Shown here: positions 1-40,895 of the stretch, one piece after another | Numbering within the stretch: the first letter of the stretch is position 1 | Layout: each line of letters begins with the position of its first letter | Source: a bacterium | GTDB lineage: Bacteria; Bacteroidota; Ignavibacteria; Kapaibacteriales; Kapaibacteriaceae | Direction of reading: 5' to 3' | Assembly: GCA_034440235.1 (NCBI GenBank) | Contig: JAWXBR010000017.1 | Coordinates: 12,566 to 76,565, forward strand | DNA length: 64,000 nucleotides | The notes under the pieces: model-generated | What the model was told of the DNA's origin: nothing | Seen by the model: the letters and a program-made list of their open reading frames with translations, nothing else | The model's database searches: none | Made by a program: the position numbers and the translations under genes

Positions 1-784
1 CGGCCTCGTGGACGACCACAGCCCTACCAGTCTTCCGGACAGATTCGAGCACGGTCTCCTCGTCAAACGGCACAAGGGTGCGTATATCAACAACCTCGAC
101 GTCGATGCCCTCTTCGGCAAGAACTGTAGCTGCCTGCAAGGCCATGTGTACGGCGCTGCCGTAGGTGATGACGCTAACAGAGGCGCCCTGGCGGACGACG
201 CGGGCGAGGCCGAGCGGGACAACATATTCGCCTTCAGGGACATCTTCCTTGATCTTGCGATAAAGCCCCTTATGCTCATAAAAGACAACGGGGTTGTTAT
301 CGCGCATCGACGCGGTGAGCAGCCCCTTAGCATCGGACGGGAAGGCCGGACATACCACTTTTAGTCCGGTCGCATGCACAAACCACGCCTCTGAATTCCT
401 CGAGTGAAACGGGTTGGCGCCAACACCACCACCAGACGGTCCACGTACGACCATGGGAAGACCGATCCCCCACCGATAAGCTGTTGTGCCTGCTACAGTA
501 ACGAGTTGGTTAAAGCCGTTGGTCACGAAATCCATGAACTGCATTTCGACGATCGGACGCATACCGTTGAGTGCTGCGCCGATACCTGCACCAATAATTG
601 CTGACTCTGAGATTGGCGCATCTATAACACGCTTAGCACCAAACTCTTCAATGAAGCCCTTGGTGAGTTTAAATGCGCCGCCATACGTACCGATGTCTTC
701 GCCAATCATAAACACACGCTCGTCCTTGCGCATTTCAATGCGCATGGCGTCGGCAATGGCCTCGAGATAGGTCATCATTGCCAT
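1..784 (-). CDS. 2-oxoacid dehydrogenase E1 component beta subunit (runs off the window edge)
   Basis: Manual translation: MAMMTYLEAIADAMRIEMRKDERVFMIGEDIGTYGGAFK...GIDVEVVDIRTLVPFD...VRKTGRAVVVHEA. Lies directly downstream of E1 alpha. Not in the ORF track because it is truncated. Confidence 0.92.
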   Translation of the reverse strand, partial: MAMMTYLEAIADAMRIEMRKDERVFMIGEDIGTYGGAFKLTKGFIEEFGAKRVIDAPISESAIIGAGIGAALNGMRPIVEMQFMDFVTNGFNQLVTVAGTTAYRWGIGLPMVVRGPSGGGVGANPFHSRNSEAWFVHATGLKVVCPAFPSDAKGLLTASMRDNNPVVFYEHKGLYRKIKEDVPEGEYVVPLGLARVVRQGASVSVITYGSAVHMALQAATVLAEEGIDVEVVDIRTLVPFDEETVLESVRKTGRAVVVHEA

Positions 785-823
785 GCAATGGACTCAGAAA
801 TTTCTAGGGTGTTCATGTTGGAA

Positions 824-1804
824 TCAGGACTCGATAAAAACATTGCGGAATCCTTCTTCTGCTGCAGGCCATGGCCTTTCGAGTGCTCTATCGATTGCGC
901 CGATCATTTCTGCAAGGGTCGACTTCTTCATGTTCTCAACATCGGCTGCTGTTAACACACGGCGTTCAACAAGGGTCTTCGCATACGTTTCGACTGGATC
1001 TTTTTTTGTCCATTCGGCCAGCATTTCCTTCGGCACATACGCATAATCGTCGTGTTCTGCGTGACCTCGCATACGCATCGTAAGTGTTTCGATAATAGAG
1101 GGTCCGTCGCCCGCACGCGCACGCTTTACCGCCCGCGCACACGCTTCGTATACAGTCTCGACGTTTGTACCATCGATAGTCTCGCCGTGTATGCCATAGC
1201 CAATGGCACGATCGGAAAGTTTTGCGCAAGCAAATTCGAGTTCGTTCGGTGTCGAGTATGCGTACCGATTGTTTTCTATGATAAGGACAAGGGGCAACTT
1301 GTGCACCGATGCAAAGTTCAGCGCTTCGTGTACTTCGCCAACCTGTGCGCCACCGTCGCCGATATACGTCATGGCAACACAATCTTCGCCGCGCATGCGT
1401 GCAGCTAGTACAAAGCCTGCTGCCACGGGAATCATCGCACCAAGGTGACTCACATTGCCGTAGATGCGCAGTTTTTCATCTGCATAGTGTCCCGTTCCAT
1501 CCGTCCCGCGCATCTGACTGCCCTCTCGCGCAAGATGATTGACCATCAGTTGGTCGAGGTCGGCGCCAAACACAAAATGTCCGCCAATGTTTCGGTGCAT
1601 CGGAAACAGCACATCGCGTTTCCGATCGAGTGCATAGGCCGAACCAACACTTGTAGCCTCGTTGCCGAGCTGCGAATACACACCACCAAATGCTTTGCCC
1701 TGACGGTACAGACGCAACATGGCAGCGTCGAATTCACGGGCCATGATCATGTACCGTAGAAGCAGAAGTGACTGTTCGGAAGTGGGTCTCAACGTTTTGG
1801 ACAC
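824..1804 (-). CDS. TPP-dependent 2-oxoacid dehydrogenase E1 alpha subunit
   Basis: GDGG-x(n)-ENN TPP motif and RMRGHAEHD loop. Probable GTG start at 1804 after AAGGAAAG. Confidence 0.92.
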   Translation of the reverse strand: MSKTLRPTSEQSLLLLRYMIMAREFDAAMLRLYRQGKAFGGVYSQLGNEATSVGSAYALDRKRDVLFPMHRNIGGHFVFGADLDQLMVNHLAREGSQMRGTDGTGHYADEKLRIYGNVSHLGAMIPVAAGFVLAARMRGEDCVAMTYIGDGGAQVGEVHEALNFASVHKLPLVLIIENNRYAYSTPNELEFACAKLSDRAIGYGIHGETIDGTNVETVYEACARAVKRARAGDGPSIIETLTMRMRGHAEHDDYAYVPKEMLAEWTKKDPVETYAKTLVERRVLTAADVENMKKSTLAEMIGAIDRALERPWPAAEEGFRNVFIES

Positions 1805-2217
1805 GCTTTCCTTACCTCTGCAACAGAGACGGCACCCTTGCTGTTGCCAAACGATGTAAACACGTAGGTAAGCACACATGCAATGTCGTCGCAATTGTAC
1901 TTCTTCGGCATAGGTGCCATTACACCATTGTACACCTTGCCATTCACCGTAATCTTACCGTGTTTGCCGTTCACGACTTCTTTAATAAGCGTGACCTTTG
2001 GTGTCGCTTTGATATAGTCGCTATTGGCAACTGGTGGATAGACCCCAGGCATGCCCTGTCCATTCGGCATGTGACAGGTCTTGCAGTACTCAAGGTACAC
2101 CTTTTTACCCTTGGCCAACGCTGCGGGGTCCGCACCAAAAGCAACAGCGTATGTGCACAAACAGCTGGCGACGATGAGCGAATAAAATCTGATCGAAAGC
2201 ATTTGCAAATTTACCAT
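1789..2217 (-). CDS. monoheme cytochrome c, exported
   Basis: Signal peptide, CKTCH heme motif, GQGMPGVYPP, distal Met in YNGVM. Confidence 0.9.
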   Translation of the reverse strand: MVNLQMLSIRFYSLIVASCLCTYAVAFGADPAALAKGKKVYLEYCKTCHMPNGQGMPGVYPPVANSDYIKATPKVTLIKEVVNGKHGKITVNGKVYNGVMAPMPKKYNCDDIACVLTYVFTSFGNSKGAVSVAEVRKACPKR

Positions 2218-2277
2218 AGGATTGAGAATTAGCCTTGCCTATGTTCGCTCATCGACCTCACAATTCGCGGAAATGCT

Positions 2278-5262
2278 ATGCGGAAACACCTCTATCGTCA
2301 CGCTCTCCAAACAGCCCTGCTGTTGTTTATTGCGGTTCAGTCGCAAGCAACCGACCTAACACCAACAGCTCTAGTATCACCTCGTCAGACACCAGTCAAA
2401 AAGGTCTCAGTGCCAGTTCAGTTCGTCGTTGCAAATCAGAATATTCAGGTAGCTGACGACTATACAATTGATGTTACCATTCGAAACGCTTCGAATCAGT
2501 TGCTGTTGTCGGAGGTTGTAACTGGCAAACGCATTCTTCCGCTTACGAATGTTATGCATACCGCAATCAACACATGGACGCCGTCAGATACAGGTAGATA
2601 TACAATCCGCGTTGCTATCGCATTTGCCCAGGACATCGACACAACTAATAATGTAAAAATTTTTACTGTCAGAGTTGTGCCGGCATCGTACACCCTTTCT
2701 ATGTTCGATGAACAGACGAACGATGCTGATACTGTGAATGCGCAAGATTGTCGCGTGGAGTATATATCGAATGCATCTTCGGTTTGGCAATTTCTAAATC
2801 TGGGTTATGTAACCGGCTCAACAATTCAATGGGTTTTGCAGAATATGCCCCTGCCTCCAAGAGATTTTTTCTACGTGTATCATACCCTTATTAACCTGCC
2901 AATTGTTGGTTTGCATCCACCACAAATTGTCATCGTCCCCTACCTCACCACCCAGCCCCTTGATTCCTTTCCCATCGACTTATCCGATACTGTTCGAATC
3001 GATTATGGAAAGGTTCGTGTGAACATCGGCGACAAAGGCCTGCAGGACACATCTAAGATAACGGTCATCGATTTTGTACCGCCTCCAACAGTGCCAACAA
3101 CTGCACCCATTACCGAAGCGGCAATCCGAAGTTGCGATGTGCCGAACATCGACCTCGACTCGGCGACCTACAATGCGACAACGGTGCCCGGGTACGCGGG
3201 CGACATGAATGCATGTGCACCAACAGCGTGCGCCAACAGTATGCAGTGGCTCGAAAAACATTTTCCTATCAACACGGGGCTTTCGCACCGTCAGAAACTG
3301 GTCGAACTAAGCAAACTCATGGGTCGAGAAAACAATACCGGTGTGTGGTCAGAAGATTTTATTCGTGCTAAGCTCGATTACATCAACAAATACAACCTGC
3401 CGATAAAAGTAAAATTTCAGTTAAGGGGCTTGACGAATGACATCGCAACATCTCCCGAGAGCGATTACGAAAGCAGTGCATCGAATCAAATTGAAGGCGC
3501 ATACCCCAAGTGGGAATGGCTGAAGAAAGAAATGCACGACAGCGAAGACGTCGAGATGTTTGTTGAGTATCACGATCGAAGTGGCGATACGTCGATCGTA
3601 TCCGGACGTCATGTCATCACCGCCAGTGGCGTAGCAGAGGCAGCCGGACAACATCGGTTCTGGTATAAGGACGATGCCGATCAGGCAAAAGCAGGCGGCA
3701 CTCGCGAGGTCGCGAACGAATGGAGATTGCGTGGTGGTACAATTCCTATCATCGACCATGTCGATTGGTCGCCAACGACATCGAGAACAACGGTTGTGTA
3801 CGGCGTGATTTCTGAGTCGTACGATTCGACTGTAAGGCGCAAAGAAAAAGGCTTCTTTGAAAAACTTCGCGATCGCACCGTTGGATGGGCACCCAGATAT
3901 GAACACGACGAAGCAGTCGATTGGGTGAAATCGCATCCGATACGGTTCGGCAACATGTACACACGCCTGCGCGATGGTGTGTATCAGCCTAACGAATGGC
4001 GGTGGGTGCTGCGCAATCATCCCATTGGTGGAGTATTTGACGGTGGCACATCGACAATCCTCAGCCATTATACCCTTGGCATCGACACAACACGATTCCC
4101 CGACCCGATAGAAGTTCGCATTCTCTATACAGACGAGCCAGTAAAAGAACAACCTCCGAATATTGGTCCTGGTATCCTCTATCCTGTTCCACCGACAATC
4201 GGCAACTACGCACAAGGTTCGCCGAACCTCACAACCATCGAGCCACCTCCAACAACGCACAAATTTCTCGAGTATCCACCGGTAGATGGGTTGCCCTTCA
4301 AGGTCGATACTGCCATTATTCACAAAGACGTACCTGGTGCCGATGTCTCTGCAAATGACACAGCCATGGTGGGCGAGTCGTTCATACTTCATGCGGCGGC
4401 TGCAATGTCATGGCTAGGCGCTCATGCTCCAGAAGTAAATCTTAACCGTAGCAACTCGACGTTGCGTAAAGAGATTGCTGAACGTCTTCAGTTTCTTGCG
4501 CCAAATTCTCAGTCGCCACAGATCGAAGCCCTTTTGCGAGAAACACAGAGTGGCTATATGCAAATGAGACCATCGTTTCAGAGCTTCAGACTTCCAGATG
4601 AGGATATCGTAATTTCTTCAATCCCAGAAGGTCCGGTCTACCACGCTAAGAACGTTAGCGTCGACCGCAAAATCGAATGGACATGGCTTCGTGATCGGTT
4701 AAAACGATTTGGTCCGATGCCCGTAGAAATCGGTTACTACAACGCCGACAAACGCACGCACGGAACGTGGGCATTAATCATCGGCGTGGTTGAACACAAC
4801 GGCCTCAAGCGCCTGATTATGAATGTCGACATGGAAGAAGATGCTCCAGGCGGACAGGAAAAACTTGTGCATACCGTACAGACATATAACGGCTACCACT
4901 ACCTTGTCGAGCAATCGTCAAACGTCAGCAGGGCCTACATCGAAACGGTCCTCTCTCTTGAGTACGATCCTTCGATGGTCGATGTGAAGGCCCAGCCCCT
5001 TACCGAAGTGTACAACCTTCGTGTTGTACCACAACCATCGGATGACGTTGTCTCGGTCTCGTGGCAACAAGCCTACACAGCGGGTGCAACAATTAGTGTT
5101 ATCGACTTGCTAGGTGTCGAGCGCTTGCGTGCAGATGTTCCGAATGACGGCTCTGCCACGTGGACAACATCGACGTCGATGTTATCGAACGGACGTTACA
5201 CCATCGTGATTTCCACAACGCTGGGAAGAACATCAATACCACTCATTGTAATTCATGAGTAA
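2278..5262 (+). CDS. secreted T9SS-substrate protein: CARDB/Ig-like domain plus two papain/C39-like modules
   Basis: Signal peptide; DIDTTNN Ig motif; NACAPTACANSMQW and GRHVITASG candidate Cys/His pair; C-terminal VVPQPS...IDLLG...LSNGRYTIVI T9SS-like domain. Confidence 0.7.
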   Translation: MRKHLYRHALQTALLLFIAVQSQATDLTPTALVSPRQTPVKKVSVPVQFVVANQNIQVADDYTIDVTIRNASNQLLLSEVVTGKRILPLTNVMHTAINTWTPSDTGRYTIRVAIAFAQDIDTTNNVKIFTVRVVPASYTLSMFDEQTNDADTVNAQDCRVEYISNASSVWQFLNLGYVTGSTIQWVLQNMPLPPRDFFYVYHTLINLPIVGLHPPQIVIVPYLTTQPLDSFPIDLSDTVRIDYGKVRVNIGDKGLQDTSKITVIDFVPPPTVPTTAPITEAAIRSCDVPNIDLDSATYNATTVPGYAGDMNACAPTACANSMQWLEKHFPINTGLSHRQKLVELSKLMGRENNTGVWSEDFIRAKLDYINKYNLPIKVKFQLRGLTNDIATSPESDYESSASNQIEGAYPKWEWLKKEMHDSEDVEMFVEYHDRSGDTSIVSGRHVITASGVAEAAGQHRFWYKDDADQAKAGGTREVANEWRLRGGTIPIIDHVDWSPTTSRTTVVYGVISESYDSTVRRKEKGFFEKLRDRTVGWAPRYEHDEAVDWVKSHPIRFGNMYTRLRDGVYQPNEWRWVLRNHPIGGVFDGGTSTILSHYTLGIDTTRFPDPIEVRILYTDEPVKEQPPNIGPGILYPVPPTIGNYAQGSPNLTTIEPPPTTHKFLEYPPVDGLPFKVDTAIIHKDVPGADVSANDTAMVGESFILHAAAAMSWLGAHAPEVNLNRSNSTLRKEIAERLQFLAPNSQSPQIEALLRETQSGYMQMRPSFQSFRLPDEDIVISSIPEGPVYHAKNVSVDRKIEWTWLRDRLKRFGPMPVEIGYYNADKRTHGTWALIIGVVEHNGLKRLIMNVDMEEDAPGGQEKLVHTVQTYNGYHYLVEQSSNVSRAYIETVLSLEYDPSMVDVKAQPLTEVYNLRVVPQPSDDVVSVSWQQAYTAGATISVIDLLGVERLRADVPNDGSATWTTSTSMLSNGRYTIVISTTLGRTSIPLIVIHE

Positions 5263-5325
5263 ACTAATGTTGCAATTGACGATCAATCGTTAGGTTCGCG
5301 TACCATTCTAATAAACTAGGACCAC

Positions 5326-5934: not shown

Positions 5935-5962
5935 GTCGTCGAGTATTAGAGCTTGGCCAGAC

Positions 5963-8437: not shown

Positions 8438-9031
8438 CTAGCTGTCGAACATGCCTTGTTGGATCGGAGACCCTTCTGAGGCGTCGGCTATAAGGGCCTC
8501 GGCGCGAGTCAGAGTGTCAAGTAAGATGTCGTTAACGATGACTTCGGCAAACTCGCCTCTGTGGCCCATTTCCATTTCGGCGCGGGCCATGCGCAAGGAA
8601 ATCTGATCGTCGGTTTCGGTCTTGCGTTCGCGAAGTCTATTTTCCAAAATCTCCAGTGACGGAGGTGCAATAAAGATGAGGAGCGTGTCTTCGGGGAATG
8701 CATGCAAGAGCGAAAGAGCCCCTTTCACGTCGACGTCGAAGACGACGTGAGCCCCTCTATCGAGGGCCGATTGCACCTGCGAACGCAACGTACCGTAATA
8801 ATGACCGAAGATCTCTTCGTATTCGATAAGGTCGCCACGTTCGATTGATGCACGAAATGCTTCGCGCGTAAGGAAATGATAGTCACGACCGTCAACTTCG
8901 TTCGGACGTTGTCCGCGCGTCGTTGCACTCACGCTGAACTCAAGCGCTGGAAAGCGCGTGAGTAAATGACGTGCTACGGTAGTCTTACCCGAGCCGCTGG
9001 GTGCACTAAGAACAATAAGCTGTTTTTTCAT
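8438..9031 (-). CDS. gmk: guanylate kinase
   Basis: SAPSGSGKTT, SVSATTR, DGRDYHF, YYGT. Confidence 0.97.
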   Translation of the reverse strand: MKKQLIVLSAPSGSGKTTVARHLLTRFPALEFSVSATTRGQRPNEVDGRDYHFLTREAFRASIERGDLIEYEEIFGHYYGTLRSQVQSALDRGAHVVFDVDVKGALSLLHAFPEDTLLIFIAPPSLEILENRLRERKTETDDQISLRMARAEMEMGHRGEFAEVIVNDILLDTLTRAEALIADASEGSPIQQGMFDS

Positions 9032-9076
9032 GCCACGTGTTGCACTTGAATGGACATAAGCACTTGAATGTACATG

Positions 9077-9952
9077 TTATTCTACGTTCTGTACTTGTTC
9101 ACGCATGCGTTCGAGCTCTTCCTTCATTCCGACGACAAGGCGGGCTATTTCTGGGTCGTTTGCCTTCGATCCGATGGTGTTTACCTCCCTATTCATTTCC
9201 TGCAGTAGAAAATTCAGCTTACGTCCGACTGCTGTCTCGTCCTGCATGTACTCGCGAAAGAACTTCATGTGACTTCGCAGCCGTACGCACTCTTCCGATA
9301 CGTCAAGTTTTTCTGAAAGCAGAACAATCTCGAGTTGCAGACGATGTTCGTCGACCACGGCATCATCGACAAGCTGGCGCACGCGTTCGCGCAACCGGTT
9401 GCGTTCGAATGGAATACGTTCGGCCGAGCGGACCTCGATGTCAGCCAGGGCAGTGTCTATTGCAAGGATGCGGTTGTCGAAATCTGCGGTAAGCTCAGAG
9501 CCTTCTTTCTCACGCATCTCATTGAGGGAGCGAAGCGCTTCGACGATTGCTGCTTTTAGGTCGGGCCAAGCGTCCGGACGTTCTGCATCTTCTTCTGGTC
9601 GTGCCATGACGGCATCGAACTTCATAAGCGTTTCGATCGTTACGTCGCCTTCGAGGTGTAGCTTGTCTCGCAATACTCGCAGCGACTTTGTGATACGCTC
9701 AGCAGCTTCTGCATTAAACGTCACCTCTTCATTGGCTGCTGCTGCTTCTAAACGAACGTACACAGAAATCGTGCCTCGCGAAACATGCTCGCGCACGGTT
9801 TCACGAACGTTGAGTTCTTTATTCGCAAAGTTTTTCGGAAGTCGTGTTGTGAGTTCCAGATACCGAGCATTTACGCATCGTATCTCTACAGAGCAGGGCA
9901 AACCCTGCAACATCGATTCGCTCTTGCCATACCCCGTCATGCTTCTAATCAT
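9077..9952 (-). CDS. yicC: YicC/YloC family endoribonuclease
   Basis: MIRSMTGYG start, GRKLNFLLQEMNREVNTIGSK, REQVQNVE end; next to gmk. Confidence 0.95.
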   Translation of the reverse strand: MIRSMTGYGKSESMLQGLPCSVEIRCVNARYLELTTRLPKNFANKELNVRETVREHVSRGTISVYVRLEAAAANEEVTFNAEAAERITKSLRVLRDKLHLEGDVTIETLMKFDAVMARPEEDAERPDAWPDLKAAIVEALRSLNEMREKEGSELTADFDNRILAIDTALADIEVRSAERIPFERNRLRERVRQLVDDAVVDEHRLQLEIVLLSEKLDVSEECVRLRSHMKFFREYMQDETAVGRKLNFLLQEMNREVNTIGSKANDPEIARLVVGMKEELERMREQVQNVE

Positions 9953-10030
9953 ATTCTCTGCCTTCTAATCATTTTCTCGACCTTGTAGTCATTTTCTCGG
10001 CCCTGTAGAGATATTCTCGGCCTTGTAGTC
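9942..10030. repeat. imperfect 20-bp tandem repeat (~4.5 copies) over the yicC start
   Basis: cttctaatcatattctctgc / cttctaatcattttctcgac / cttgtagtcattttctcggc / cctgtagagatattctcggc / cttgtagtc. Confidence 0.85.
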
Positions 10031-10032
10031 GG

Positions 10033-10040
10033 CAAAGATA
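10033..10040 (-). promoter_or_regulatory. Bacteroidota-type -7 promoter element for yicC-gmk
   Basis: TATCTTTG on the minus strand matches the TAnnTTTG consensus. Confidence 0.55.
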
Positions 10041-10051
10041 GCGACCGTATC

Positions 10052-10852
10052 TTGCCATCCATGATTGAGGCACTCGCACCATATACTATCAAGGTCTGGA
10101 TTGTCGCTGGTTCGGGCTTTGCCGATGCCATCATTGCGGCTCAGTTGCCTTTACTTACAGAGGTGGCGTACGAAGCGGTTCCGGGCATACCGGCAACAAC
10201 AGTGCACGGACACAAAGCGGTGTTACGCGTTGTAGACTATGGTGGCGCAGCCGTAGGAATATTTCTTGGACGCCATCACCTTTACGAAGGTCACTCTGGC
10301 GATGCTTCGTGCGCACTCGTACGTGTAGCGCAAGAGCATGGAGGCACACACATTATTCTGACGAATGCTTCGGGCGGGCTCGATCCGTCGCTATCCGTAG
10401 GCGACATTGCACTGTTGCACGATGGTATCGATTTTACGTTCGAGAATGCCTCATCATCCCAACGGCAACCATCATCCCATCGACTTCCATCAGCGCATCA
10501 ACCGCCGAAATTCGACAAGGCATGGATAACCAAGACATCGCAACGCTGCTTTGCGCACGGAATCGCAACGAGAGAGTGCTCATACGCGCAGGTGTTGGGT
10601 CCGTCATTCGAAACACGGGCCGAAATCAGAATGCTGCGTCGTATGGGTGCAGACCTTGTTGGCATGTCTACTATTCACGAGGCATCTGCTGCGACAATCT
10701 TGGGCATGCACGTACTAGGCATCTCGTTGGTAACCAACAAGGCAAGTGATACGACGGGCTCTGCTATTTCACACCGAGAGGTGCTCGAGACTGCATTGGA
10801 AGGCTCTGCTAGACTTCGTGTGGTATTGATGGCTGCGTTAGACACAGCATAG
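10052..10852 (+). CDS. punA: purine-nucleoside phosphorylase
   Basis: GSG, TVHGH, GRHHLYEG, TNASGG, GPSFETRAE, VGMST, VTN. The start may be ATG 10061. Confidence 0.9.
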   Translation: MPSMIEALAPYTIKVWIVAGSGFADAIIAAQLPLLTEVAYEAVPGIPATTVHGHKAVLRVVDYGGAAVGIFLGRHHLYEGHSGDASCALVRVAQEHGGTHIILTNASGGLDPSLSVGDIALLHDGIDFTFENASSSQRQPSSHRLPSAHQPPKFDKAWITKTSQRCFAHGIATRECSYAQVLGPSFETRAEIRMLRRMGADLVGMSTIHEASAATILGMHVLGISLVTNKASDTTGSAISHREVLETALEGSARLRVVLMAALDTA

Positions 10853-25570: not shown

Positions 25571-25584
25571 GATGGCGATTCATG

Positions 25585-25687
25585 CGTAGCGGTTTGGGCA
25601 GCTCTGCGCTGCCCGGTTTGAGCCGCTGGTCACGACGTAGCGGTTTGGGCAGCTCTGCGCTGCCCGGTTTGATCTGCTTCGCAGATC
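25585..25687. repeat. two identical 37-bp REP-like hairpins plus a third hairpin, between convergent genes
   Basis: cgtagcggtttGGGCAGCtctgcGCTGCCCggtttga at 25585-25621 and 25636-25672; GATCTGCttcGCAGATC at 25671-25687. Confidence 0.8.
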
Positions 25688-31470: not shown

Positions 31471-31710
31471 TTAGGCTGCTTTTTTTTTTGCAGCTGTCTT
31501 CTTTGCTGCCTTCTTAGCAGGCTTAGCCTTCTTAGCTGCCTTAGCCTTCTTAGCAGGCTTTGCCTTCTTTGCAGCCTTCTTAGCTGGTGCTGCCTTCTTA
31601 GCTGTAGCCTTCTTAGCTGGTGCTGCCTTCTTAGCCGCCTTCTTGGCTGGCTTCTTGGCTGCCTTCTTAGCTGGCTTAGCCTTTTTCGCTGCCTTTTTCG
31701 CTGCTGCCAT
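31471..31710 (-). CDS. histone H1-like Lys/Ala/Pro-rich protein
   Basis: 79 aa of AKKAA/PAKKA repeats starting at ATG 31710. Confidence 0.8.
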   Translation of the reverse strand: MAAAKKAAKKAKPAKKAAKKPAKKAAKKAAPAKKATAKKAAPAKKAAKKAKPAKKAKAAKKAKPAKKAAKKTAAKKKAA

Positions 31711-31767
31711 AAACTAATCTCCGAACAGTTGAACATGAAAACGCGTACGCCACTTTGGCGTAAGCAT

Positions 31768-34700
31768 CTACGATGCGAATTGCGCACCTGCGCGCTCGAT
31801 CCGCACGCTGACATTTCGCCCGTTAATCTCGAGAAGCGTCCCAAAGGGACCTTCCCCCCGCTCGAGCGTATCGGCCAGCGTTTCCATTACAATCGAATTC
31901 CGCATGACATGCATTGCTTCCGTCACTTCCTCATCTGCTGCGAACGCAATATCTATACGGTCTGTCACCTCAAATCCAGAGTCCTTGCGGAACTTCTGAA
32001 CCTTACTAACGAACTCGCGTGCCAAGCCTTCCTGAATCAGCACACTGTCCAACTCCGTGTCAAGCGCAACCGTCACGCCATTATCCGAAGCAACCAACCA
32101 ACCTTCGATGTCCTGATTTACAATTTCCACGTCTTCGCGGTCAATCGAGACCGACTCACCGCCGACATGTACTTCCAGAACTAGAGATTGTTCGAGTTTG
32201 CGGACCTGTTCGTTATCCAACGATTTGATCGCCTGCGAAACCAGCTGTGTTTTGTCTCCATACTTCTTCCCGATGATCTTGAAGTTCGGTTTCGTTGAGC
32301 GTTGAACAATGTTCGTATCGTCCGATACATATTCAATGGCCTTTACGTTAATCTCTTCAAGAATGATGTCCTCGACCGTTTGAATTTGTCTACGCATCTG
32401 TGGACCATCGACCGGGAGAAGAATTCGACGCAGCGGTTGTCGCGTTTTGATCTTCGATTTCTCTCTCAAAGAACGTGCAAGGAAAACAATTGTCTGCGCT
32501 TGCTTCATCCGATACTCTAAGTCACTGTTGATAAGTGACGTATCGACCCCGCGCAATATACTACAATGAATGCTCAAATGTTCGTTGTGCAAACGTGCTC
32601 GTAGGAAAATCTGCTCGGCTAAAAACGGAGCGACGGGAGCGATGAGTTGCGCAGTGGTAACAATCACTTCGTGAAGGGTCTGATACGCTGCACGTTTGTC
32701 TTCGTCCATCTCCCCTTTCCAAAACCGTCGACGATTTCTTCGCACGTACCAATTCGAAACATCTTCGATTACAAACTCTTGAACAATCCTGCATGCCTTC
32801 GTTATGTCGTACGCATCCATGCTTTCGGTGTACGATTGAATGACGGTATTTAGTCGCGATAAAATCCAGTGATCGATTTCCGGACGTTCTGCGATTGGCA
32901 CGATGGGTTCTTCGCCAGTGAATCCATCGATACCAGCATACAGCGAAAAGAAACCATACGTGTTTACATAAGAACGGAATAAGTCTGCTAAGACAGTCCT
33001 GGCAACGTCGTCCTCATTGAAGTTGCGCGGCTTCCACGCTGGCGCGGCGGCCATCAAGTACCAACGGATTGCATCGGCGCCGTATTTGTCGAACAACACA
33101 AACGGGTCGAGGATGTTGCCTCTTGACTTGGACATCTTCTGTCCGTTTTTGTCGAGCAACATGTCATTCACAACTACATGTCTATACGCTGGCTTATCAA
33201 ACAGCGCCGTCGATATGTTGTGCATGGTATAAAACCATCCGCGCGTCTGATCGATTCCCTCTGCAATAAAATCGGCTGGAAATGACTTGTTAAACAATTC
33301 TACATTCTCGAATGGGTAATGGAATTGTGCAAAAGGCATCGTACCCGAATCGAACCATGCGTCGATGACTTCTTTTGTGCGACGATATTCGACGCCGTTT
33401 TTGACGAAGACAACGCGGTCGACGAACGGACGATGCAAATCGATGTCGATGGACAAGTTTTCCACAGGAACCTTCGAGCCGTCGTCCTGAACATAGAGTC
33501 CTTTCTTCAACTCATCAATCGATCCGACTGCGAACATGTCACTTCCATCTTCGCTCACCCAAATTGGTAATGGCGTTCCCCAATATCTATCGCGTGATAG
33601 TGACCATTCTTTTACTTCTTCGAGCCAATTACCAAAACGTCCAACACCAATTTCTTCAGGATGCCACGCAATGGTTTTATTCAACGCAACGAGTTGTTCT
33701 TTGTACTCAGGCGATTTTATAAACCACGAATCACGCGCGTAATAGATGACCGGATTGTCGGTTCGCCAGCAATGCGGATAGCTGTGCATGTAATCGAACG
33801 CAGCCTTGTATGCCTTGCCACCAATTTTTAATTCCTTGACGATGTCACGGTCCGCACCCTCTTCAAAAACGAATTCTTCGCCACCCTCTTTCGAAGGGTT
33901 AGGATACCTAAATGTCTTTACCGCACGACCCGCATAGTTCTTAATAACATCGGTGAACTTTCCTGTCGGCGTTACAGGCTGCACTACGGGCAGATTGAAT
34001 TGCTTTGCAATCTCGAAGTCATCCTGTCCGAAGGCAGGCGCGATGTGCACCACGCCAGTACCATCAGCCGTAGTCACAAACGATCCTGGTAACACATGCA
34101 GCACATTTGGATGTGCAGCAGTGTCGAGCACAACGTCTGTAAAGATCTGCTCGTATGTAGAGTTCACAATCTCGCTTCCGAGGAAACGCTCGAGCTCTTC
34201 CGTTTCGCCGTCGAGGATTTCAAGACGGGACTCAGCGAGCACGACGAGTTCTTCGACCTGTGCTGCACCAACAGTTCGTGTGTTACGCACGAGTACATAT
34301 GGAATGTCCGGACCCACTGCGAGTGCAACGTTTCCGAATAACGTCCAAGGCGTCGTTGTCCATACAAGAATAAAAGCCCCTTTGGCTTCGGCCCCTTGAC
34401 TAGTAGCATCCGCTGCTTGAGCAGTACCAATTGACTTTTTGTCGATGATGTTTTGAAGCGAAGCGATTGGCGATGACGTTAGGCGAAGCTTTAGGTAGAC
34501 ATTCGGGTCACGGACGTCTTTGTAGTTCAGCGAAAGTTCGTGCGACGACAACGGTGTGCCGAGGGTTGGCGATTGCGGAACAACCTTGAAGCCTTTGTAG
34601 ATGAGGTTCTTGTCGAAGAACTGCTTGAGTGCCCACCACACCGACTCGACATAATCGTTCGAACATGTGATGTACGGATTATCGAGATCGAGCCAATAAC

Positions 34701-35124
34701 CCATGCGTCGCGTAAGTGTGCGCCACCCCGTGTCGTGTGCGATGTTGTAATCGACGAGGGCTTTGCATGCAGCGTTGAATACATCAACGCCTAGGACTTC
34801 GATCTGTGCTTTATCGGTAATGCCAAGTTGCTTTTCTACAGCAAGCTCAACGGGGAGTCCGTGTGTATCCCAACCCGCCTTACGCGGCACATAAAACCCA
34901 CGCATGGTTTTATACCGACACATCGTGTCTTTAATGGTACGAGCAAACGCGTGGTGAATGCCAGGACTTCCATTAACCGTCGGAGGTCCTTCATTAAACG
35001 CAAACAGCTCGGCACCCTCGCGCTCCTTTAACGAAGCTGCAAAAACACCGTTGCTCTCCCAGTACTCAAGGATGTCTTGTTCGTGGCGGGGATAAGAGAA
35101 ATCGTCGGGAAGCGGTTCAAACAT
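31768..35124 (-). CDS. ileS: isoleucine--tRNA ligase (type 2)
   Basis: EGPP..NG.PGIHH, GWDTHGLP, WTTTPWT, EGIDQTRGWF, KMSKS. Confidence 0.98.
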   Translation of the reverse strand: MFEPLPDDFSYPRHEQDILEYWESNGVFAASLKEREGAELFAFNEGPPTVNGSPGIHHAFARTIKDTMCRYKTMRGFYVPRKAGWDTHGLPVELAVEKQLGITDKAQIEVLGVDVFNAACKALVDYNIAHDTGWRTLTRRMGYWLDLDNPYITCSNDYVESVWWALKQFFDKNLIYKGFKVVPQSPTLGTPLSSHELSLNYKDVRDPNVYLKLRLTSSPIASLQNIIDKKSIGTAQAADATSQGAEAKGAFILVWTTTPWTLFGNVALAVGPDIPYVLVRNTRTVGAAQVEELVVLAESRLEILDGETEELERFLGSEIVNSTYEQIFTDVVLDTAAHPNVLHVLPGSFVTTADGTGVVHIAPAFGQDDFEIAKQFNLPVVQPVTPTGKFTDVIKNYAGRAVKTFRYPNPSKEGGEEFVFEEGADRDIVKELKIGGKAYKAAFDYMHSYPHCWRTDNPVIYYARDSWFIKSPEYKEQLVALNKTIAWHPEEIGVGRFGNWLEEVKEWSLSRDRYWGTPLPIWVSEDGSDMFAVGSIDELKKGLYVQDDGSKVPVENLSIDIDLHRPFVDRVVFVKNGVEYRRTKEVIDAWFDSGTMPFAQFHYPFENVELFNKSFPADFIAEGIDQTRGWFYTMHNISTALFDKPAYRHVVVNDMLLDKNGQKMSKSRGNILDPFVLFDKYGADAIRWYLMAAAPAWKPRNFNEDDVARTVLADLFRSYVNTYGFFSLYAGIDGFTGEEPIVPIAERPEIDHWILSRLNTVIQSYTESMDAYDITKACRIVQEFVIEDVSNWYVRRNRRRFWKGEMDEDKRAAYQTLHEVIVTTAQLIAPVAPFLAEQIFLRARLHNEHLSIHCSILRGVDTSLINSDLEYRMKQAQTIVFLARSLREKSKIKTRQPLRRILLPVDGPQMRRQIQTVEDIILEEINVKAIEYVSDDTNIVQRSTKPNFKIIGKKYGDKTQLVSQAIKSLDNEQVRKLEQSLVLEVHVGGESVSIDREDVEIVNQDIEGWLVASDNGVTVALDTELDSVLIQEGLAREFVSKVQKFRKDSGFEVTDRIDIAFAADEEVTEAMHVMRNSIVMETLADTLERGEGPFGTLLEINGRNVSVRIERAGAQFAS

Positions 35125-36719: not shown

Positions 36720-36747
36720 TCGTGAAAATAGCCCTGTATATTTGATA

Positions 36748-37707: not shown

Positions 37708-37709
37708 CC

Positions 37710-38630
37710 ATGGTTACGTATCTCTTGCGGAAGGTGCTCTATGCGATACTCGTCCTCGTGGGCGTTATTGCAGTCACGTTCTTTATACGTCCGCCCGGCG
37801 ACCCGGCACGCGTACTGCTCGGACAGCGTGCAGATGAGCAGAGCATACGCGCACTGCGCGAGCAACTCGGACTCGATAAACCTCTGCCCGTGCAGATGGG
37901 ATACTACATGGTGAATCTGGTGCAGGGCGACATGGGACGTAGCATTGCCACAGGCCGATCGGTTACCGAAACAATCATGGAACGTTTGCCTGCTACGGCA
38001 TTGCTTGCATGTACATCGATGGCAATTGCAACGCTGTTAGGGATTGTACTCGGACTCGTTGCTGCATATAAACCGAACTCTTGGACAGATTCGCTAACGA
38101 TGTCCGTATCACTTCTCGGAATTTCATTGCCAGCATTTGTTGTTGGTCTGTTGCTCGTGTTGCTCTTCGGCGTGGTGCTCGAGTGGTTTCCCAATAGCGG
38201 TTACGTCGATCGAGGTGCAGAATATTTAGTGCTGCCGATGATCACACTTGCAATACGTCCGATGGCCATCATCGCACGTGTTACGCGCTCGAGTATGCTC
38301 GACGTGTTGGGTCAGGACTACGTCCGTACCGCCCGCGCCAAAGGCCTCAACAACTTCTCTGTCTACACAAAACACGCTCTTCGCAATGCGCTTAACCCTG
38401 TTGTTACAACGGTGAGTGCATGGTTCGCAGGATTGCTTGCTGGTACGTACTTCATCGAATACATTTTTAGTTGGCCCGGCGTCGGACTCACCGCGTTTAA
38501 TGCAATCGAAAAACTCGACTTCCCCGTTATTCAAGGCACTGTTCTCTTAACCGCAATTGTATTTGTTGTTGTGAACGTGTTCGCCGATCTTCTGTATGCC
38601 TACATCGACCCGAAGGTCCGTCTTAACTAA
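37710..38630 (+). CDS. dppB: peptide ABC transporter permease (DppB/OppB)
   Basis: PGDP, GLDKP, DYVRTARAKG, DLLYAYIDP. Confidence 0.9.
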   Translation: MVTYLLRKVLYAILVLVGVIAVTFFIRPPGDPARVLLGQRADEQSIRALREQLGLDKPLPVQMGYYMVNLVQGDMGRSIATGRSVTETIMERLPATALLACTSMAIATLLGIVLGLVAAYKPNSWTDSLTMSVSLLGISLPAFVVGLLLVLLFGVVLEWFPNSGYVDRGAEYLVLPMITLAIRPMAIIARVTRSSMLDVLGQDYVRTARAKGLNNFSVYTKHALRNALNPVVTTVSAWFAGLLAGTYFIEYIFSWPGVGLTAFNAIEKLDFPVIQGTVLLTAIVFVVVNVFADLLYAYIDPKVRLN

Positions 38631-38637
38631 TGAATCC

Positions 38638-38753
38638 CATGACCAACTTTGTTAAGGGGCCGCAAGCATGAGCAACTTTGTTAAGGGGCCGCAAGCATGA
38701 GCAACTCTGGTAAGGGGCAAGAAGCATGAGCAACTCTGGTAAGGGGCAAGAAG
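38638..38753 (+). repeat. four 29-bp tandem repeats over the dppC start
   Basis: catga(c/g)caactttgttaaggggccgcaag x2, then catgagcaactctggtaaggggcaagaag x2. Confidence 0.92.
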
Positions 38754-39787
38754 GGGGCGAAAGCCTTTGGTACGTTGCGTGGCGCAGACTTCGCAAAAAT
38801 CCGGGTGCAATCTTCGGCATGACGGTGCTTGCAATTATGATTGTGATGGCGGTGGCTGCACCAATCATTACTCCGTTCGACCCAACAACGCAGATTCTCG
38901 AATACGCAGTAAAGCCTGCTGGTTTTAGGGGTAACGTGTTATTAAAGAAGAATCCATCGGATGTAGATCAGCCTTCGATTGTTGCGGTGTCTACGTGGGA
39001 GCAACGTGGTGATACGGTGTTCTACACCGACCCAGCAGGTCAGCCGTACAAGGTTGCTGTGTCGGCGTTGCAAGGCACAAGCGCAAGCGACTGGCATGAA
39101 GAGCCGCTGTTTCTGTTGGGCACCGATCGGTTCGGACGCGACATGTTTAGTCGGCTCGTGTACGGTATGCGCGTATCGTTAAGTGTTGGTCTTATCGCAG
39201 AATCGATTGCGTTGTCGATTGGCATTCTGCTCGGCTCGTTGGCGGGCTTCTATAGAGGATGGATAGACGACGTTATCATGTGGCTTGTAAATGTTGTGTG
39301 GTCGTTCCCGACAATTCTTCTCGTCATTGCATTCAGCGTCATCCTCGGCAAAGGTTATTGGCAAACGTTTGTTGCCATTGGATTATCGTCGTGGGTAGAC
39401 ATTGCACGTATCGTGCGAGGTCAGTTCTTCTCTATCCGCGAACAGGAATACGTCGAAGCAACACGAGCGTTGGGTTTCGGTTCGATGCGTACGATTTTTA
39501 GGCACATGCTTCCGAATGCCGCCGGACCAATTATTGTGTTATCGACGGCTGGGTTTGCAACGGCCATTATTGCCGAAGCATCACTTTCGTTCATAGGCCT
39601 TGGCGTTCAGCCCCCTACCCCATCATGGGGTCAGATGATTAAAGACGGTTACGGCTACATCGCTCTAGGTACTAATTGGGGAATGACAGTCTTCCCGAGT
39701 ATCGCCATGGCGCTTGCGGTGTTGTCGCTGAATTTGTTTGGTGACGGACTTCGCGACGCACTCGACCCGAAGACAACACAGCGATGA
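38726..39787 (+). CDS. dppC: peptide ABC transporter permease (DppC/OppC)
   Basis: LGTDRFGRD, EYVEATRALG, PPTPSWG, GDGLRDALDP. Confidence 0.9.
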   Translation: MSNSGKGQEGGESLWYVAWRRLRKNPGAIFGMTVLAIMIVMAVAAPIITPFDPTTQILEYAVKPAGFRGNVLLKKNPSDVDQPSIVAVSTWEQRGDTVFYTDPAGQPYKVAVSALQGTSASDWHEEPLFLLGTDRFGRDMFSRLVYGMRVSLSVGLIAESIALSIGILLGSLAGFYRGWIDDVIMWLVNVVWSFPTILLVIAFSVILGKGYWQTFVAIGLSSWVDIARIVRGQFFSIREQEYVEATRALGFGSMRTIFRHMLPNAAGPIIVLSTAGFATAIIAEASLSFIGLGVQPPTPSWGQMIKDGYGYIALGTNWGMTVFPSIAMALAVLSLNLFGDGLRDALDPKTTQR

Positions 39788-39833
39788 GTACGGCTAATCA
39801 GTCATCATACCAGTCAACACTATCGACGCAACG

Positions 39834-40895
39834 ATGATTGATGCGATGATTAAATCTGGTGTCTATCCGCCAGTGCTTTTGTTGTTTGGTGAAGAGGAAT
39901 TACTCGTCGACGAAGCAGCGCGCAACATCTATGCTGCGGCAACTGCTGATGACTTGAGCGGCATGAATAACGACGCTCTCGAAGGCGAAGGTATGTCGCT
40001 CGACGCCATTCTCATGATCGCACGCTCGTTCCCGATGATGGGCGACCGTCGTGTGGTGTGGGTGCGTCGGTTCGATAAAGTCATAGGAGCAAAAGATAAA
40101 AAAGGCAACGATCTTATGGCGGCGTATATGAAGTCGCCGTCCGAGTCGACGTTTCTATTGCTTACGGCGTCGCTGTCGAGCATTGACGGACTCCAGGCAT
40201 CGATGCAAAAAAGTGCAGCAACAGCACAACGTAAAATCGCTGCACAAAAGCCTCCGATCGGAGCATTGTTAAAGAGTGCGAAGTGGCACGAGTTTCCTCG
40301 CATGCGCGAAGCGCAAGTGCGTACGTGGGTACGGGCGCGGGGGACTGCAATCGGACTCGCCATTGACGATGGCGCAATCGATTTTCTTTTGCTGCGATGT
40401 GGCACGCAACTGCGCGACCTTGCGCTCGAGCTCGACAAGCTCAAGACGTATGTTGGCGATCGCACTGCAGCAACACTCGACGACATTAATGCGATTGTTG
40501 GTGCGGGCAAGACGTACAACATCTTCGAACTGCAACGTGCAATCGGACGTGCCGATGTATCGAATGCGTACACCATCCTCACGCGCATGATGGAAGCCGA
40601 GCGTCAGGAAATGCTCATCATCGCAATGCTCACGCGCTACTTCCTCGCACTCTTCAAGCTCACCGACCTGCGAGGTTCTACCGACCGCGCAGACGTTGCA
40701 AAGCGCGCAGGCATCCCCATGTTTGCCGTCGGAGATCACATGGAAGCACTCGACCGACTTGGCGCGGCGCGTGTCGAACGCGCCCTTATGCTGCTTGTTA
40801 AAGCCGACGCAACTATCAAGTCGTCTTCGTCCGACGCACTCACCGTACTTCAGACGGCCCTATCGCAAATCCTCGAACCCGTCACCGCTCGATAG
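39834..40895 (+). CDS. holA: DNA polymerase III subunit delta
   Basis: LLFGEEELL, FPMMGDRRVV, ELDKL, YNIFEL. Confidence 0.9.
   Translation: MIDAMIKSGVYPPVLLLFGEEELLVDEAARNIYAAATADDLSGMNNDALEGEGMSLDAILMIARSFPMMGDRRVVWVRRFDKVIGAKDKKGNDLMAAYMKSPSESTFLLLTASLSSIDGLQASMQKSAATAQRKIAAQKPPIGALLKSAKWHEFPRMREAQVRTWVRARGTAIGLAIDDGAIDFLLLRCGTQLRDLALELDKLKTYVGDRTAATLDDINAIVGAGKTYNIFELQRAIGRADVSNAYTILTRMMEAERQEMLIIAMLTRYFLALFKLTDLRGSTDRADVAKRAGIPMFAVGDHMEALDRLGAARVERALMLLVKADATIKSSSSDALTVLQTALSQILEPVTAR

Follow-up and report, generated by a model that had tools for sequence, protein, structure and literature searches.

The question raised by this stretch of DNA (the window, 64,000 nucleotides in all) is why several gaps between same-strand genes are crossed by a micro-ORF that begins at the upstream stop and ends at the downstream start. 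A first-pass annotation of the sequence had read these bridges as a window-wide pattern, with duplications at gene junctions surviving mainly when they keep a ribosome hand-over. Overall, our analysis supports that interpretation in part: we regard the bridging micro-ORFs mostly as duplication scars, which may still hand ribosomes to the next gene.

Bridges and insertions at the junctions of the window

An ORF scan reproduced the micro-ORFs in all five of the gaps named in the first-pass annotation and in the yicC leader (Table 1). A sixth bridge, absent from that list, joins snoaL to the PHP-domain gene, where a 35-nt duplication has copied 41333-41348 at 41368-41383. The proposal that several bridges are built from local tandem duplications is borne out by TRF arrays and by local self-similarity, which is significant in 11 of the 18 junction regions of the window. 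A 29-nt x 3.8 tandem array of the dppC start (38638-38747) gives the dppB/dppC chain, in which dppB is linked to the first ORF by TAATG, and the ORFs to one another and to the dppC ATG by ATGA. The array in the yicC leader consists of copies of the yicC start (self-similarity score 39.5, period 20); its ORFs run from 10058/9992 to 9969 and from 9972 to 9949, the second ending within the ATGA at which yicC starts (ATG 9952). Moreover, an 18-nt direct repeat (9042-9075) lies inside the yicC/gmk bridge, and the E1alpha/E1beta micro-ORF copies, in diverged form, the region where E1beta starts (self-similarity period 32, p=0.025). The 50-nt insert between dppC and holA is not significantly self-similar (p=0.105) and may have arisen by duplication, as its CGATGA end, the only indication, suggests. 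Two further tandem arrays, spanning the stops of holA and of the DUF1501 gene, carry no bridge; for the second we agree with the annotation, which had listed 54194-54248 as a counter-example, though a 20-nt tandem array is present there.

Table 1. Gaps, bridging micro-ORFs and tandem arrays in the window (d, distance from the ATG to the end of the upstream stop; off, position of the micro-ORF stop relative to the downstream start).
Feature	Position	Strand	Details
E1alpha-E1beta gap	785-823	-	ATG 816, d=+7, 13 aa, TGA off +7
E1alpha/E1beta bridge ORF	775..816 (816->775)	-	E1alpha 824-1894, E1beta start 784
yicC-gmk gap	9032-9076	-	ATG 9075, d=+1, 15 aa, TGA within gmk ATGA
yicC/gmk bridge ORF	9028..9075	-	ORF scan
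yicC leader array and ORF chain	9949..10058	-	20-nt x 4.1 array at 9949-10030 (TRF)
ileS-H1 gap	31711-31767	-	ATG 31767, d=0, 17 aa, TAG off -6
ileS-H1 ORF	31714..31767	-	17 aa, between ileS and H1-like gene
dppB-dppC gap	38631-38725	+	three chained ORFs
dppB/dppC chain	38630..38729	+	38630-38671, 38668-38700, 38697-38729; dppC start 38726
dppC-holA gap	39788-39833	+	ATG 39784 within dppC ATGA, 17 aa, TGA within holA ATGA
dppC/holA bridge ORF	39784..39837	+	present holA start 39834
holA-stop array, no bridge	40872..40965	+	35-nt x 2.7 tandem array spanning holA stop
snoaL/PHP bridge (sixth)	41344..41382	+	12 aa, snoaL-stop ATGA to ATGA of PHP-domain gene start (41379)
DUF1501-stop array, no bridge	54197..54254	-	20-nt x 2.9 tandem array spanning DUF1501 gene stop

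The genome studied (G000) was compared with a same-genus relative (G001), a family relative from another genus (G007) and further relatives. At dppB-dppC the gap in G001 is 8 nt, with the start where copy 1 lies, and in 10 other relatives the genes overlap by ATGA. At dppC-holA such an overlap is found in G001 as well as in 6 further relatives (3 have +2 and 1 has +11), and the micro-ORF starts on the ancestral holA ATG and crosses the 50-nt insertion (delta +50 versus G001). At yicC-gmk the genes overlap by ATGA in G001 and spacing is -11 to +5 nt in 11 of 11 relatives, while at E1alpha-E1beta the gap is 5 nt in G001 and mostly -4 to +22 among relatives, the G000 spacer being 34 nt longer than that of G001. 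The yicC leader spacer (+38 nt), the snoaL/PHP junction (+35 nt) and the junction of the holA-stop array (+67 nt) also exceed their G001 counterparts; across a 45-kb syntenic stretch, G000 has the longer spacing at 18 junctions (by 11-87 nt) and the shorter at 4 (by 12-52 nt). On this sequence comparison, four of the five gaps named in the annotation are insertions specific to G000. The inserted junction sequences have no further copies anywhere in the genome, and the four micro-ORFs derived from them are absent from G001, so that none is conserved even within the genus.

The fifth gap, ileS-H1, had been counted as a member of the pattern and does not belong to it. Its spacer is kept across the family and carries a hairpin (31746-31762) with compensatory changes in 5 of 7 stem pairs among 9 sequences, followed by TTTTCAT, an SD-like GGAG(G) and the start at 31710; the ORF is found in G000 and G001 only, and is a chance ORF across this conserved spacer.

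Bridges and tandem arrays across the genome

Genes were called with an ad-hoc caller whose start positions are uncertain, and bridges were counted under four start rules. The main tally (ATG-started chains, PWM-refined starts, co-directional gaps of 25-150 nt) gave 57 bridged gaps among 597 (9.5%), against 35.3 +/- 4.7 in dinucleotide shuffles, 34.3 when every circular rotation of a gap is taken and 32.4 +/- 4.7 under a second-order Markov model. With longest-ORF starts the count was 52/493 (25.8, 24.7 and 21.7 under the shuffle, rotation and Markov nulls), with first-ATG starts 54/584 (31.4, 28.8 and 25.9) and with maximum-score starts 53/620 (35.1, dinucleotide shuffles only). The excess, 1.5- to 2.4-fold with z from 3.7 to 7.7, is real but modest, and on this point the annotation is supported. 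The window, with 6 of its 16 co-directional gaps of 25-150 nt bridged by our own gene calls, is about four times richer in bridges than the genome; bridging is thus no general rule of the window or of operons, a point that the annotation had overstated, and even among array-bearing gaps it occurs in just 20 of 138. The ATG of the bridge lies on the upstream stop in 38 of the 57 cases (28 at d=-4, 10 at d=-1), the ORF closes at offset +1 (ATGA) in 38, and both overlaps occur together in 32. An ATG overlaps the stop before co-directional gaps of 25-150 nt at -4 in 68/597 and at -1 in 43/597, against 18/448 and 13/448 at convergent ends.

Tandem arrays scoring at least 11 occur in 266 of the 1346 intergenic regions of G000 and in none of the shuffles. 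Under a simpler gene call, array-bearing regions number 269/1367 in G000, 59/400 in G001 and 7/344 in G007 (7, 1 and 5 in shuffles), or about 20%, 15% and 2%, the last being the shuffle level. Under the same call the bridge enrichment tracks array density, with 54/619 bridged against 34.1 expected in G000, 11/167 against 6.3 in G001 and 10/177 against 8.0 in G007. In G000 itself a weaker enrichment persists in gaps without a detectable array (28/390 against 20.4). Bridges are not a general Bacteroidota design: array-poor G007 shows no enrichment.

Duplication, frame and a possible ribosome relay

We consider it likely that the bridges are by-products of genus-specific, short tandem duplications spanning gene junctions, with a filter against decoy starts and possibly a ribosome relay. 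The duplications, mostly of 12-45 nt in 2-7 copies, would be tolerated because both gene ends survive intact once: the upstream stop is preserved in the first copy, the downstream start in the last. At junctions whose ancestral genes overlapped by ATGA or TAATG, or lay a few bases apart, the old start codon would remain beside the upstream stop. With a period of 2 mod 3, this ATG would read the copied N-terminal codons in the frame of the downstream gene and then the copied 3' end in the frame of the upstream gene, ending on the TGA within the next ATGA. Since both stretches would be open by descent, a bridge, or with several copies a chain, would follow automatically. Thus, duplication of an ATGA at 2 mod 3 makes a bridge by construction, and selection is not needed for bridges to exist. 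Bridging by period class is 12/60 (2 mod 3), 1/34 (1 mod 3) and 7/44 (0 mod 3).

The annotation had also raised, as a point to check, a bias of junction-spanning repeat lengths to 2 mod 3. Periods of co-directional junction arrays are distributed 67/39/76 over 0/1/2 mod 3, and those of arrays bearing a sense ATG 31/10/34 (2 versus 1, binomial p=0.0004; small numbers from a single genome); the bias is stable across the four start definitions, and G001 has too few arrays for replication (4/3/5 with ATG, 19/7/11 for all co-directional arrays). The frame bias is therefore present, but since periods of 0 and 2 mod 3 are equally common, it reflects a scarcity of 1 mod 3 and not a preference for 2 mod 3. 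Convergent and divergent arrays together give 33/27/24. Co-directional arrays without ATG give 36/29/42 (29 versus 42 not significant), and a comparable bias appears with antisense CAT as control (14 versus 37), probably via the CATG start context, so that the dependence on ATG is not cleanly isolated. The deficit of 1 mod 3 would be expected if decoy ORFs running past the true start were selected against, a filter that appears to act on top of the duplications, leaving 1 mod 3 arrays with decoy ATGs under-represented. Out-of-frame ATGs that open an ORF extending beyond the start are fewer than expected, 83 against 117 in frame 1 and 41 against 55 in frame 2; frame-1 cases are also depleted in divergent leaders (85 against 117), and avoidance of decoy starts is therefore general and not particular to operon gaps. 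Within co-directional gaps, uORFs that stop on the start in the ATGA frame exceed expectation (135 against 97), and in divergent leaders they do not (58 against 76), a difference by gap type consistent with the annotation.

A ribosome initiating at the decoy ATG would terminate on the ATGA and re-initiate, so that the scar may cost little and retain part of a coupling that would be lost across a plain spacer of 30-100 nt, in an organism making little use of Shine-Dalgarno sequences. Re-initiation drops steeply with distance and is nearly abolished by about 20 nt (PMC10666635), and Bacteroidetes do not use SD sequences for initiation or re-initiation (PMC6728339). The reading of the annotation, that the micro-ORFs exist because selection keeps this hand-over and that duplications at junctions persist mainly where it is retained, seems to us less likely. 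It would account for the 1 mod 3 deficit in ATG-bearing arrays, for the enrichment of start-terminated uORFs in co-directional gaps only and for the excess of bridges over three nulls; the affected pairs include the heteromeric partners E1alpha/E1beta and dppB/dppC, and coupling requires near-zero spacing according to PMC10666635. On the other hand, few array-bearing gaps are bridged, 107 of the 182 co-directional arrays contain no ATG, 0 mod 3 periods are common, bridges at 2 mod 3 form by construction, G007 shows no enrichment and 0 of 4 insert-derived micro-ORFs are conserved.

A neutral phase bias, in which slippage between codon-aligned microhomologies of genes overlapping by -4 or -1 would favour 2 mod 3 distances, is unlikely to suffice. 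By reasoning, ATGA and TAATG overlaps have the geometry that this requires, and the lean of non-ATG arrays towards 2 mod 3 points the same way; across intact -4/-1 junctions, microhomologies favour 2 mod 3 by 1.13- to 1.19-fold at k=4-6, but this opportunity is far below the observed 3.4:1 and is no longer seen at k=7-8 (ratio of 1.0 or below, small counts). That short ORFs in AT/GC-balanced spacers simply touch both neighbours by chance is very improbable. Chance alone would bridge a fair number of gaps (32-35 of 597), ATGA stands at 43-49% of gene starts, the ORF at ileS-H1 is an instance and array-free gaps show a weak excess only, but the enrichment holds with three nulls and across four start rules, more than half of the bridges overlap at both ends and the insertions are seen directly in the comparison with relatives; chance is rejected for the set as a whole and stands for individual cases only. 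We give almost no credence to functional micropeptides or regulatory leader peptides, since the frames, although open over 7-17 codons in transcribed operon spacers, are missing from G001 at four junctions, encode peptides that are mutually unrelated or copy the neighbour's N-terminus and, at ileS-H1, are not kept beyond the genus. Equally hard to credit is that a metagenome assembler made the copies. The genome does come in 71 contigs that lack a 16S gene, and the 29-nt array breaks k=31 contigs, but copies are diverged (63-100% matches), coding arrays are nearly all in frame (234/272), independent contigs from other public runs cross the dppC-holA, holA-snoaL and snoaL-PHP insertions without gaps and G001 has arrays of its own.

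Comparison with known systems

Overlapping unidirectional gene pairs (ATGA, TAATG/TGATG) are coupled by termination-reinitiation (Huber et al. 2019, PMC6728339; Huber et al. 2023, PMC10666635). Each chain link described here is such a -4 or -1 stop/start overlap, and the ancestral state of the four junctions is an overlap of this type or a few-base gap; here, however, the overlap is repeated, with ORFs of 7-17 codons and no conserved sequence between two real genes. Ribosome delivery by a short upstream ORF coupled to a gene (PMC12548453) shares its architecture with the yicC leader chain and with the last link of each bridge, but the known examples are conserved leader ORFs, whereas those described here are young duplication products. 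The closest known case is that of the interspersed repetitive units of mycobacteria (MIRUs; Supply et al. 1997, as summarised in PMC12548453). MIRUs are likewise short repeats, often tandem, placed exactly at gene starts within operons, with a small ORF coupled to the downstream gene at -4 (ATGA) spacing. MIRUs are dispersed and apparently mobile in that account, whereas the units here are local copies of their own junction, found nowhere else in the genome; moreover, the MIRU host is an actinobacterium, and the present one is of Bacteroidota type, with T9SS cargo and weak SD use. In the same summary, the small ORF of MIRUs is thought to make the insertion tolerable by delivering ribosomes.

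Micro-ORF bridges in co-directional gaps

Co-directional gaps in this genome are spanned from upstream stop to downstream start by a micro-ORF, or by a chain of them, 1.5- to 2.4-fold more often than expected by chance, and this excess is real. Genes were called with an ad hoc caller built on a 3-periodic, fifth-order Markov model, with starts chosen in four ways (maximum score, PWM-refined, longest ORF or first ATG), and a bridge was defined as a chain of ATG-initiated ORFs in which the first start falls between -4 and +7 nt relative to the upstream stop end, each successive start falls within the same range relative to the previous stop, and the last stop begins -10 to +7 nt from the downstream start. 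Using PWM-refined starts, 57 of the 597 co-directional gaps of 25-150 nt are bridged, against 35.3 +/- 4.7 expected from dinucleotide shuffles, 34.3 when every spacer is rotated through all its positions and 32.4 +/- 4.7 under a second-order Markov model; under the other start rules the counts are 52/493, 54/584 and 53/620, against 21.7-35.1 expected. The bridge frequency is thus above the shuffled expectation, the comparison that the first-pass annotation had set as its check. By their geometry the bridges show the -4/-1 overlaps of the termination-reinitiation type: 38/57 start at -4 or -1, on the upstream stop, 38/57 end at offset +1 (ATGA), and 32/57 overlap both neighbours. No such overlap is found in the E1alpha-E1beta bridge (first ATG at +7, stop offset +7) or in the bridge between ileS and H1, a K/A-rich ORF (0 and -6).

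All five bridges named in the first-pass annotation (E1alpha-E1beta, yicC-gmk, ileS-H1, dppB-dppC and dppC-holA) were reproduced with the geometry described there, the first ATG falling between -4 and +7 nt relative to the end of the upstream stop, the ORFs measuring 10-17 aa and the last stop falling between -6 and +7 nt relative to the downstream start. The ORF chain in the yicC leader was also found, a counter-example lacks a bridging ORF as claimed, and a sixth bridge lies between a SnoaL-like gene and a PHP-domain gene (see the table for coordinates). Bridging had also been described as a window-wide pattern; genome-wide, however, only roughly a tenth of such gaps carry a bridge, and the window is atypically rich (6/16). 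The gene names proposed earlier agree with Pfam. The assembly comprises 3.04 Mb in 71 contigs (50.5% G+C), and a Por_Secre_tail domain in the window fits a Bacteroidota-type organism. Since the assembly contains no 16S gene from which to take an anti-SD sequence, SD use was gauged from 294 confident starts: an SD-like motif precedes 61 of them, versus 24 in a control window, and 43% read ATGA, with an A after the start codon. A 994-aa ORF in the window has no ortholog in the otherwise collinear stretch of a same-genus relative.

Features of the window, with positions and strands
Feature	Position	Strand	Basis or remark
E1beta	start 784	(-)	Pfam
E1alpha	824-1894	(-)	Pfam
994-aa ORF	2278-5262	(+)	no Pfam match
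gmk	8438-9031	(-)	Pfam
yicC	9077-9952	(-)	Pfam
Convergent gap with palindromic unit	25571-25685		TRF period 24 x 3.3
H1, K/A-rich, 79 aa	31471-31710	(-)	no Pfam match
H1-like gene made of repeats	31498-31703	(-)	in-frame 9-33-nt repeats
Hairpin-bearing stretch of the ileS-H1 spacer	31738-31762	(-)	6-7 bp stem
ileS	31768-35124	(-)	Pfam
dppB-type permease	37710-38630	(+)	Pfam
dppC-type permease	38726-39787	(+)	Pfam
holA	39834-40895	(+)	Pfam
Sixth bridge, SnoaL-like/PHP-domain	41344-41382
tRNA-Leu(gag) 3' part	45217-45249		exact repeat at 50899-50931 (regions 45155-45249 and 50837-50931)
Second 26-nt stretch near tRNA-Leu	45361-45386		repeated at 50837-50862
Genes between the tRNA-Leu repeats	46804-47718 and 48304-49557
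Gap without bridge	54194-54248
Por_Secre_tail domain	54249-55811

Probable origin of the bridged gaps by local duplication

Homologous junctions were compared in the same-genus relative and in ten or eleven family relatives. Where the genome under study has the dppB-dppC bridge, the same-genus relative has an 8-nt gap, its start standing at the position of the first copy of the array (a short local tandem duplication), and 10/10 other relatives have an ATGA overlap. At dppC-holA, ATGA overlaps occur in the same-genus relative and six others, with spacings of +2 in three relatives and +11 in one; at yicC-gmk, they occur in the same-genus relative and four others, the rest ranging from -11 to +5. 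The E1alpha-E1beta gap is 5 nt in the same-genus relative and -4 to +22 in 8/10 relatives with both genes found, the other two comprising an ambiguous call (2 or 53) and a pair 990 nt apart. Because overlaps or mostly short gaps prevail at these places, the four gaps are insertions in the lineage of the genome under study. Their four micro-ORFs begin on or beside the ancestral start. The inserts themselves are mostly repetitive: a 29-nt unit in 3.8 copies, which includes the dppC start, makes up the dppB-dppC insert; the E1 micro-ORF encodes a diverged copy of the E1beta N-terminus (period 32); yicC-gmk has an 18-nt repeat; and in the SnoaL-like/PHP gap an ATGA junction is duplicated over 35 nt. 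The 50-nt insert at dppC-holA carries a second CGATGA at its end; its self-similarity is not significant.

The ileS-H1 spacer has a different history. It is conserved family-wide at about 57 nt and holds a hairpin with compensatory changes in 5/7 pairs among nine family sequences, a conserved TTTTCAT after it and, 8-10 nt ahead of the H1 start, an SD-like GGAG(G). A simple scan calls no terminator there because just four T follow, beginning 4 nt past the stem. The ORF is open only in the genome under study and the same-genus relative, the spacers of which differ by one base over 65 nt, and the bridge is a chance ORF. The micro-ORFs do not fit a regulatory leader peptide or attenuator, which would be a conserved ORF with regulatory codons and alternative terminator/antiterminator structures: they are missing from the same-genus relative at four junctions and the only conserved structure, this hairpin, persists without the ORF in other genera.

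The duplications are not confined to the bridged gaps. Over a 45-kb syntenic stretch, 18 junctions exceed their counterparts in the same-genus relative by 11-87 nt, and four fall short of them by 12-52 nt. A scan for ungapped self-similarity (score of at least 11) in all intergenic regions between 8 and 400 nt long, taken together with flanks of 45 nt, revealed arrays in 266/1346 regions, versus 0/1346 shuffles. Similarly, TRF (period of at least 10) found 273 arrays in the intergenic 12.7% of the genome and 272 in the coding 87%. Since the period is divisible by 3 in 234/272 coding arrays, and since the H1-like gene is itself made of in-frame repeats, the same duplication process also lengthens proteins. 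Outside the window, the most extreme junction arrays are a 20-nt, ATGA-containing unit in seven copies that yields a chain of six mini-ORFs (C62:18704-18820), an exact 29-nt unit in four copies (C49:4131-4217) and a stop-spanning 19-nt unit in six copies (C40:795-892). Within it, a convergent spacer 60 nt longer than its counterpart in the same-genus relative contains a 51-nt duplication of a G+C-rich palindromic unit, probably a duplicated terminator.

Arrays of about 12-45 nt occupy 19.7% of intergenic regions in the genome under study, 14.8% in the same-genus relative (1.09 Mb of ~3.0 Mb sampled) and 2.0%, the shuffle level, in a family relative from another genus (0.8 of 2.84 Mb). Processed with one pipeline, the three genomes have 54/619, 11/167 and 10/177 bridged gaps, versus 34.1, 6.3 and 8.0 expected, respectively; the bridge excess follows array density. 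The duplication-prone state is one of the genus. Loss of a slippage-suppressing gene was rejected as its cause for five genes only, the Pol I 5'-nuclease domain, MutS, MutL, XseA and RecJ being present in both members of the genus and in 11/11 other relatives searched. Nor are the inserts copies of a dispersed mobile element, as other copies were not found in the assembly: blastn-short with 17 window spacers returned self and within-array matches, apart from one match of 16 nt, one of 30 nt (on contig C18) and two repeats close to tRNA-Leu. Two genes between the tRNA-Leu repeats have no tblastn match in the relative's contig, which ends soon after the ortholog of the gene at 45413, and the region between the repeats is possibly a small island that inserted at the tRNA gene. 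An assembly artefact is excluded by contigs from other public runs that cross three of the window insertions gap-free; the contigs of four public runs contain no array indels, with k=31 contigs breaking inside the 29-nt array, where copy number is unreadable.

How such duplications could produce bridges follows from their geometry. When a segment with an ATGA junction duplicates, the first copy would keep the upstream stop and the last copy the working start, and the ATG of the first copy would lie p + 1 nt ahead of the TGA of the next (p being the period). If p is 2 mod 3, reading from the old ATG would run through the copy of the N-terminal codons in the frame of the downstream gene and then through the copy of the 3' end in the frame of the upstream gene; both stretches would be open by descent, and reading would end on the TGA of the next ATGA. 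A bridge would thus exist without any selection. Array-bearing gaps are bridged in 12/60 cases at 2 mod 3, 1/34 at 1 mod 3 and 7/44 at 0 mod 3. The first-pass annotation inferred that junction duplications survive mainly when a ribosome hand-over is kept. Its observation holds, and its interpretation is partly supported: bridges exceed three null expectations, but selection is not required for a bridge that arises by construction. Moreover, ATGs overlap the stop before 68 and 43 of the 597 co-directional gaps, compared with 18 and 13 of 448 convergent-end stops, where they are two- to threefold rarer, as expected if many gaps are expanded overlaps. Duplication of the start context does not by itself explain the enrichment: only 20-25 gaps were flagged by an ungapped 21-nt test, and the remaining gaps still showed the excess. 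The more sensitive array scan accounts for more of the excess, yet part remains. Overall, these relay-type mini-ORFs originate in stop/start junctions that were duplicated locally, and the genus is unusually prone to such duplication.

Reading frame of the junction duplications

Among co-directional arrays whose spacer copies include a sense ATG, periods of 0, 1 and 2 mod 3 number 31, 10 and 34 (2 versus 1, p=0.0004), a deficit of 1 mod 3 shown here in small numbers and for one genome. The corresponding tallies are 67/39/76 for all co-directional arrays, 36/29/42 for those without an ATG, which lean alike, non-significantly, toward 2 mod 3, and 33/27/24 for convergent and divergent gaps. The pattern is stable at higher score thresholds and under other start rules; an antisense control of the tally is confounded by the frequent CATG start context. 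In the same-genus relative the ATG-bearing arrays number 4/3/5, too few to replicate the bias, as are the arrays sampled from the relative of another genus. A bias of junction repeats toward 2 mod 3 had been proposed earlier, and it holds for 2 over 1 (34 versus 10) but not over 0 mod 3, which is equally common (31).

We considered a neutral cause for the deficit, that codon-aligned microhomologies across a -4/-1 overlap sit at 2 mod 3. The opportunity ratio, however, is only 1.13-1.19 at k=4-6 (250 intact overlaps), too small for 3.4:1. An independent tally concerns the ATGs themselves. In co-directional gaps the total of out-of-frame ATGs matches expectation, but their classes are shifted: ATGs with an ORF that overruns the start are depleted (83 versus 117 and 41 versus 55 expected), and ATGs whose ORF terminates on the start, in the ATGA frame, are in excess (135 versus 97 expected). 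In divergent leaders, frame-1 overrun is also depleted (85 versus 117 expected) and start-terminated uORFs are not enriched (58 versus 76 expected). We read this as follows: decoy starts that overrun the real start are disfavoured everywhere, junction duplications keep supplying decoys in operon gaps, and the decoys that persist are those with an ORF stopping no later than the real start. We infer that the 1 mod 3 deficit is due to selection on translation, with ribosomes initiating on decoy ATGs and re-initiating at ATGA. This is reasonable because re-initiation needs short spacing, a spacer of about 20 nt nearly abolishing it in the account of PMC10666635, and because neither initiation nor re-initiation is described as SD-reliant in Bacteroidetes in that of PMC6728339.

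The fuller account, in which gene ends duplicate actively, the scars are sorted by frame, and ATGA-linked relay chains carry ribosomes over spacers of 30-120 nt without an SD fallback, is tentative, and we give it clearly less than an even chance. Were the relay to operate, the genome would be a natural experiment indicating that termination-reinitiation matters for fitness in Bacteroidota. If the frame filter is confirmed, it would provide population-genetic evidence for a cost of initiating upstream and out of frame in an SD-independent bacterium, and it would show that termination with the stop on the start neutralises this cost. The filter is measurable, 1 mod 3 being scarce only in arrays with a decoy ATG whose ORF would run past the true start. 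For annotation, the true start in such genomes is the one in the last copy, and the spacers may be mistaken for small genes.

Relation to known systems

Coupling through ATGA is already known, as are MIRU-type ORFs (MIRU, mycobacterial interspersed repetitive unit) that make insertions at start codons tolerable. The literature searched contains no account of local junction duplication as a genome-wide source of relay ORFs and no frame tally of it; the words 'duplication', 'tandem' and 'insertion' are absent from the preprint 10.64898/2026.09.10.750558. The biology of each bridge is ordinary, and by its geometry each link is an ordinary -4/-1 overlap of the kind described by Huber et al. This genome contributes scale and a set of controls: its local junction duplications are independent of one another, number in the hundreds, come with or without a decoy start, and cover the three period classes and every gene orientation. 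With them the genome offers a rare chance to test, by counting, whether selection acts on upstream reading frames. MIRUs are the nearest described system: they are reported to insert at start codons with an internal ORF coupled to the gene at -4, which minimises the cost of insertion (PMC12548453). The bridges share this architecture and its presumed benefit, an ORF being joined at -4 to the starts of dppC, holA, gmk, the PHP gene and yicC, and elsewhere in the genome, for example at C62:18704 and C49:4131. MIRUs, however, are a dispersed family, whereas the units found here are local copies, and on that defining feature they are not MIRUs. If the mini-ORFs do relay ribosomes, they would be a home-grown, non-mobile counterpart of the MIRU.
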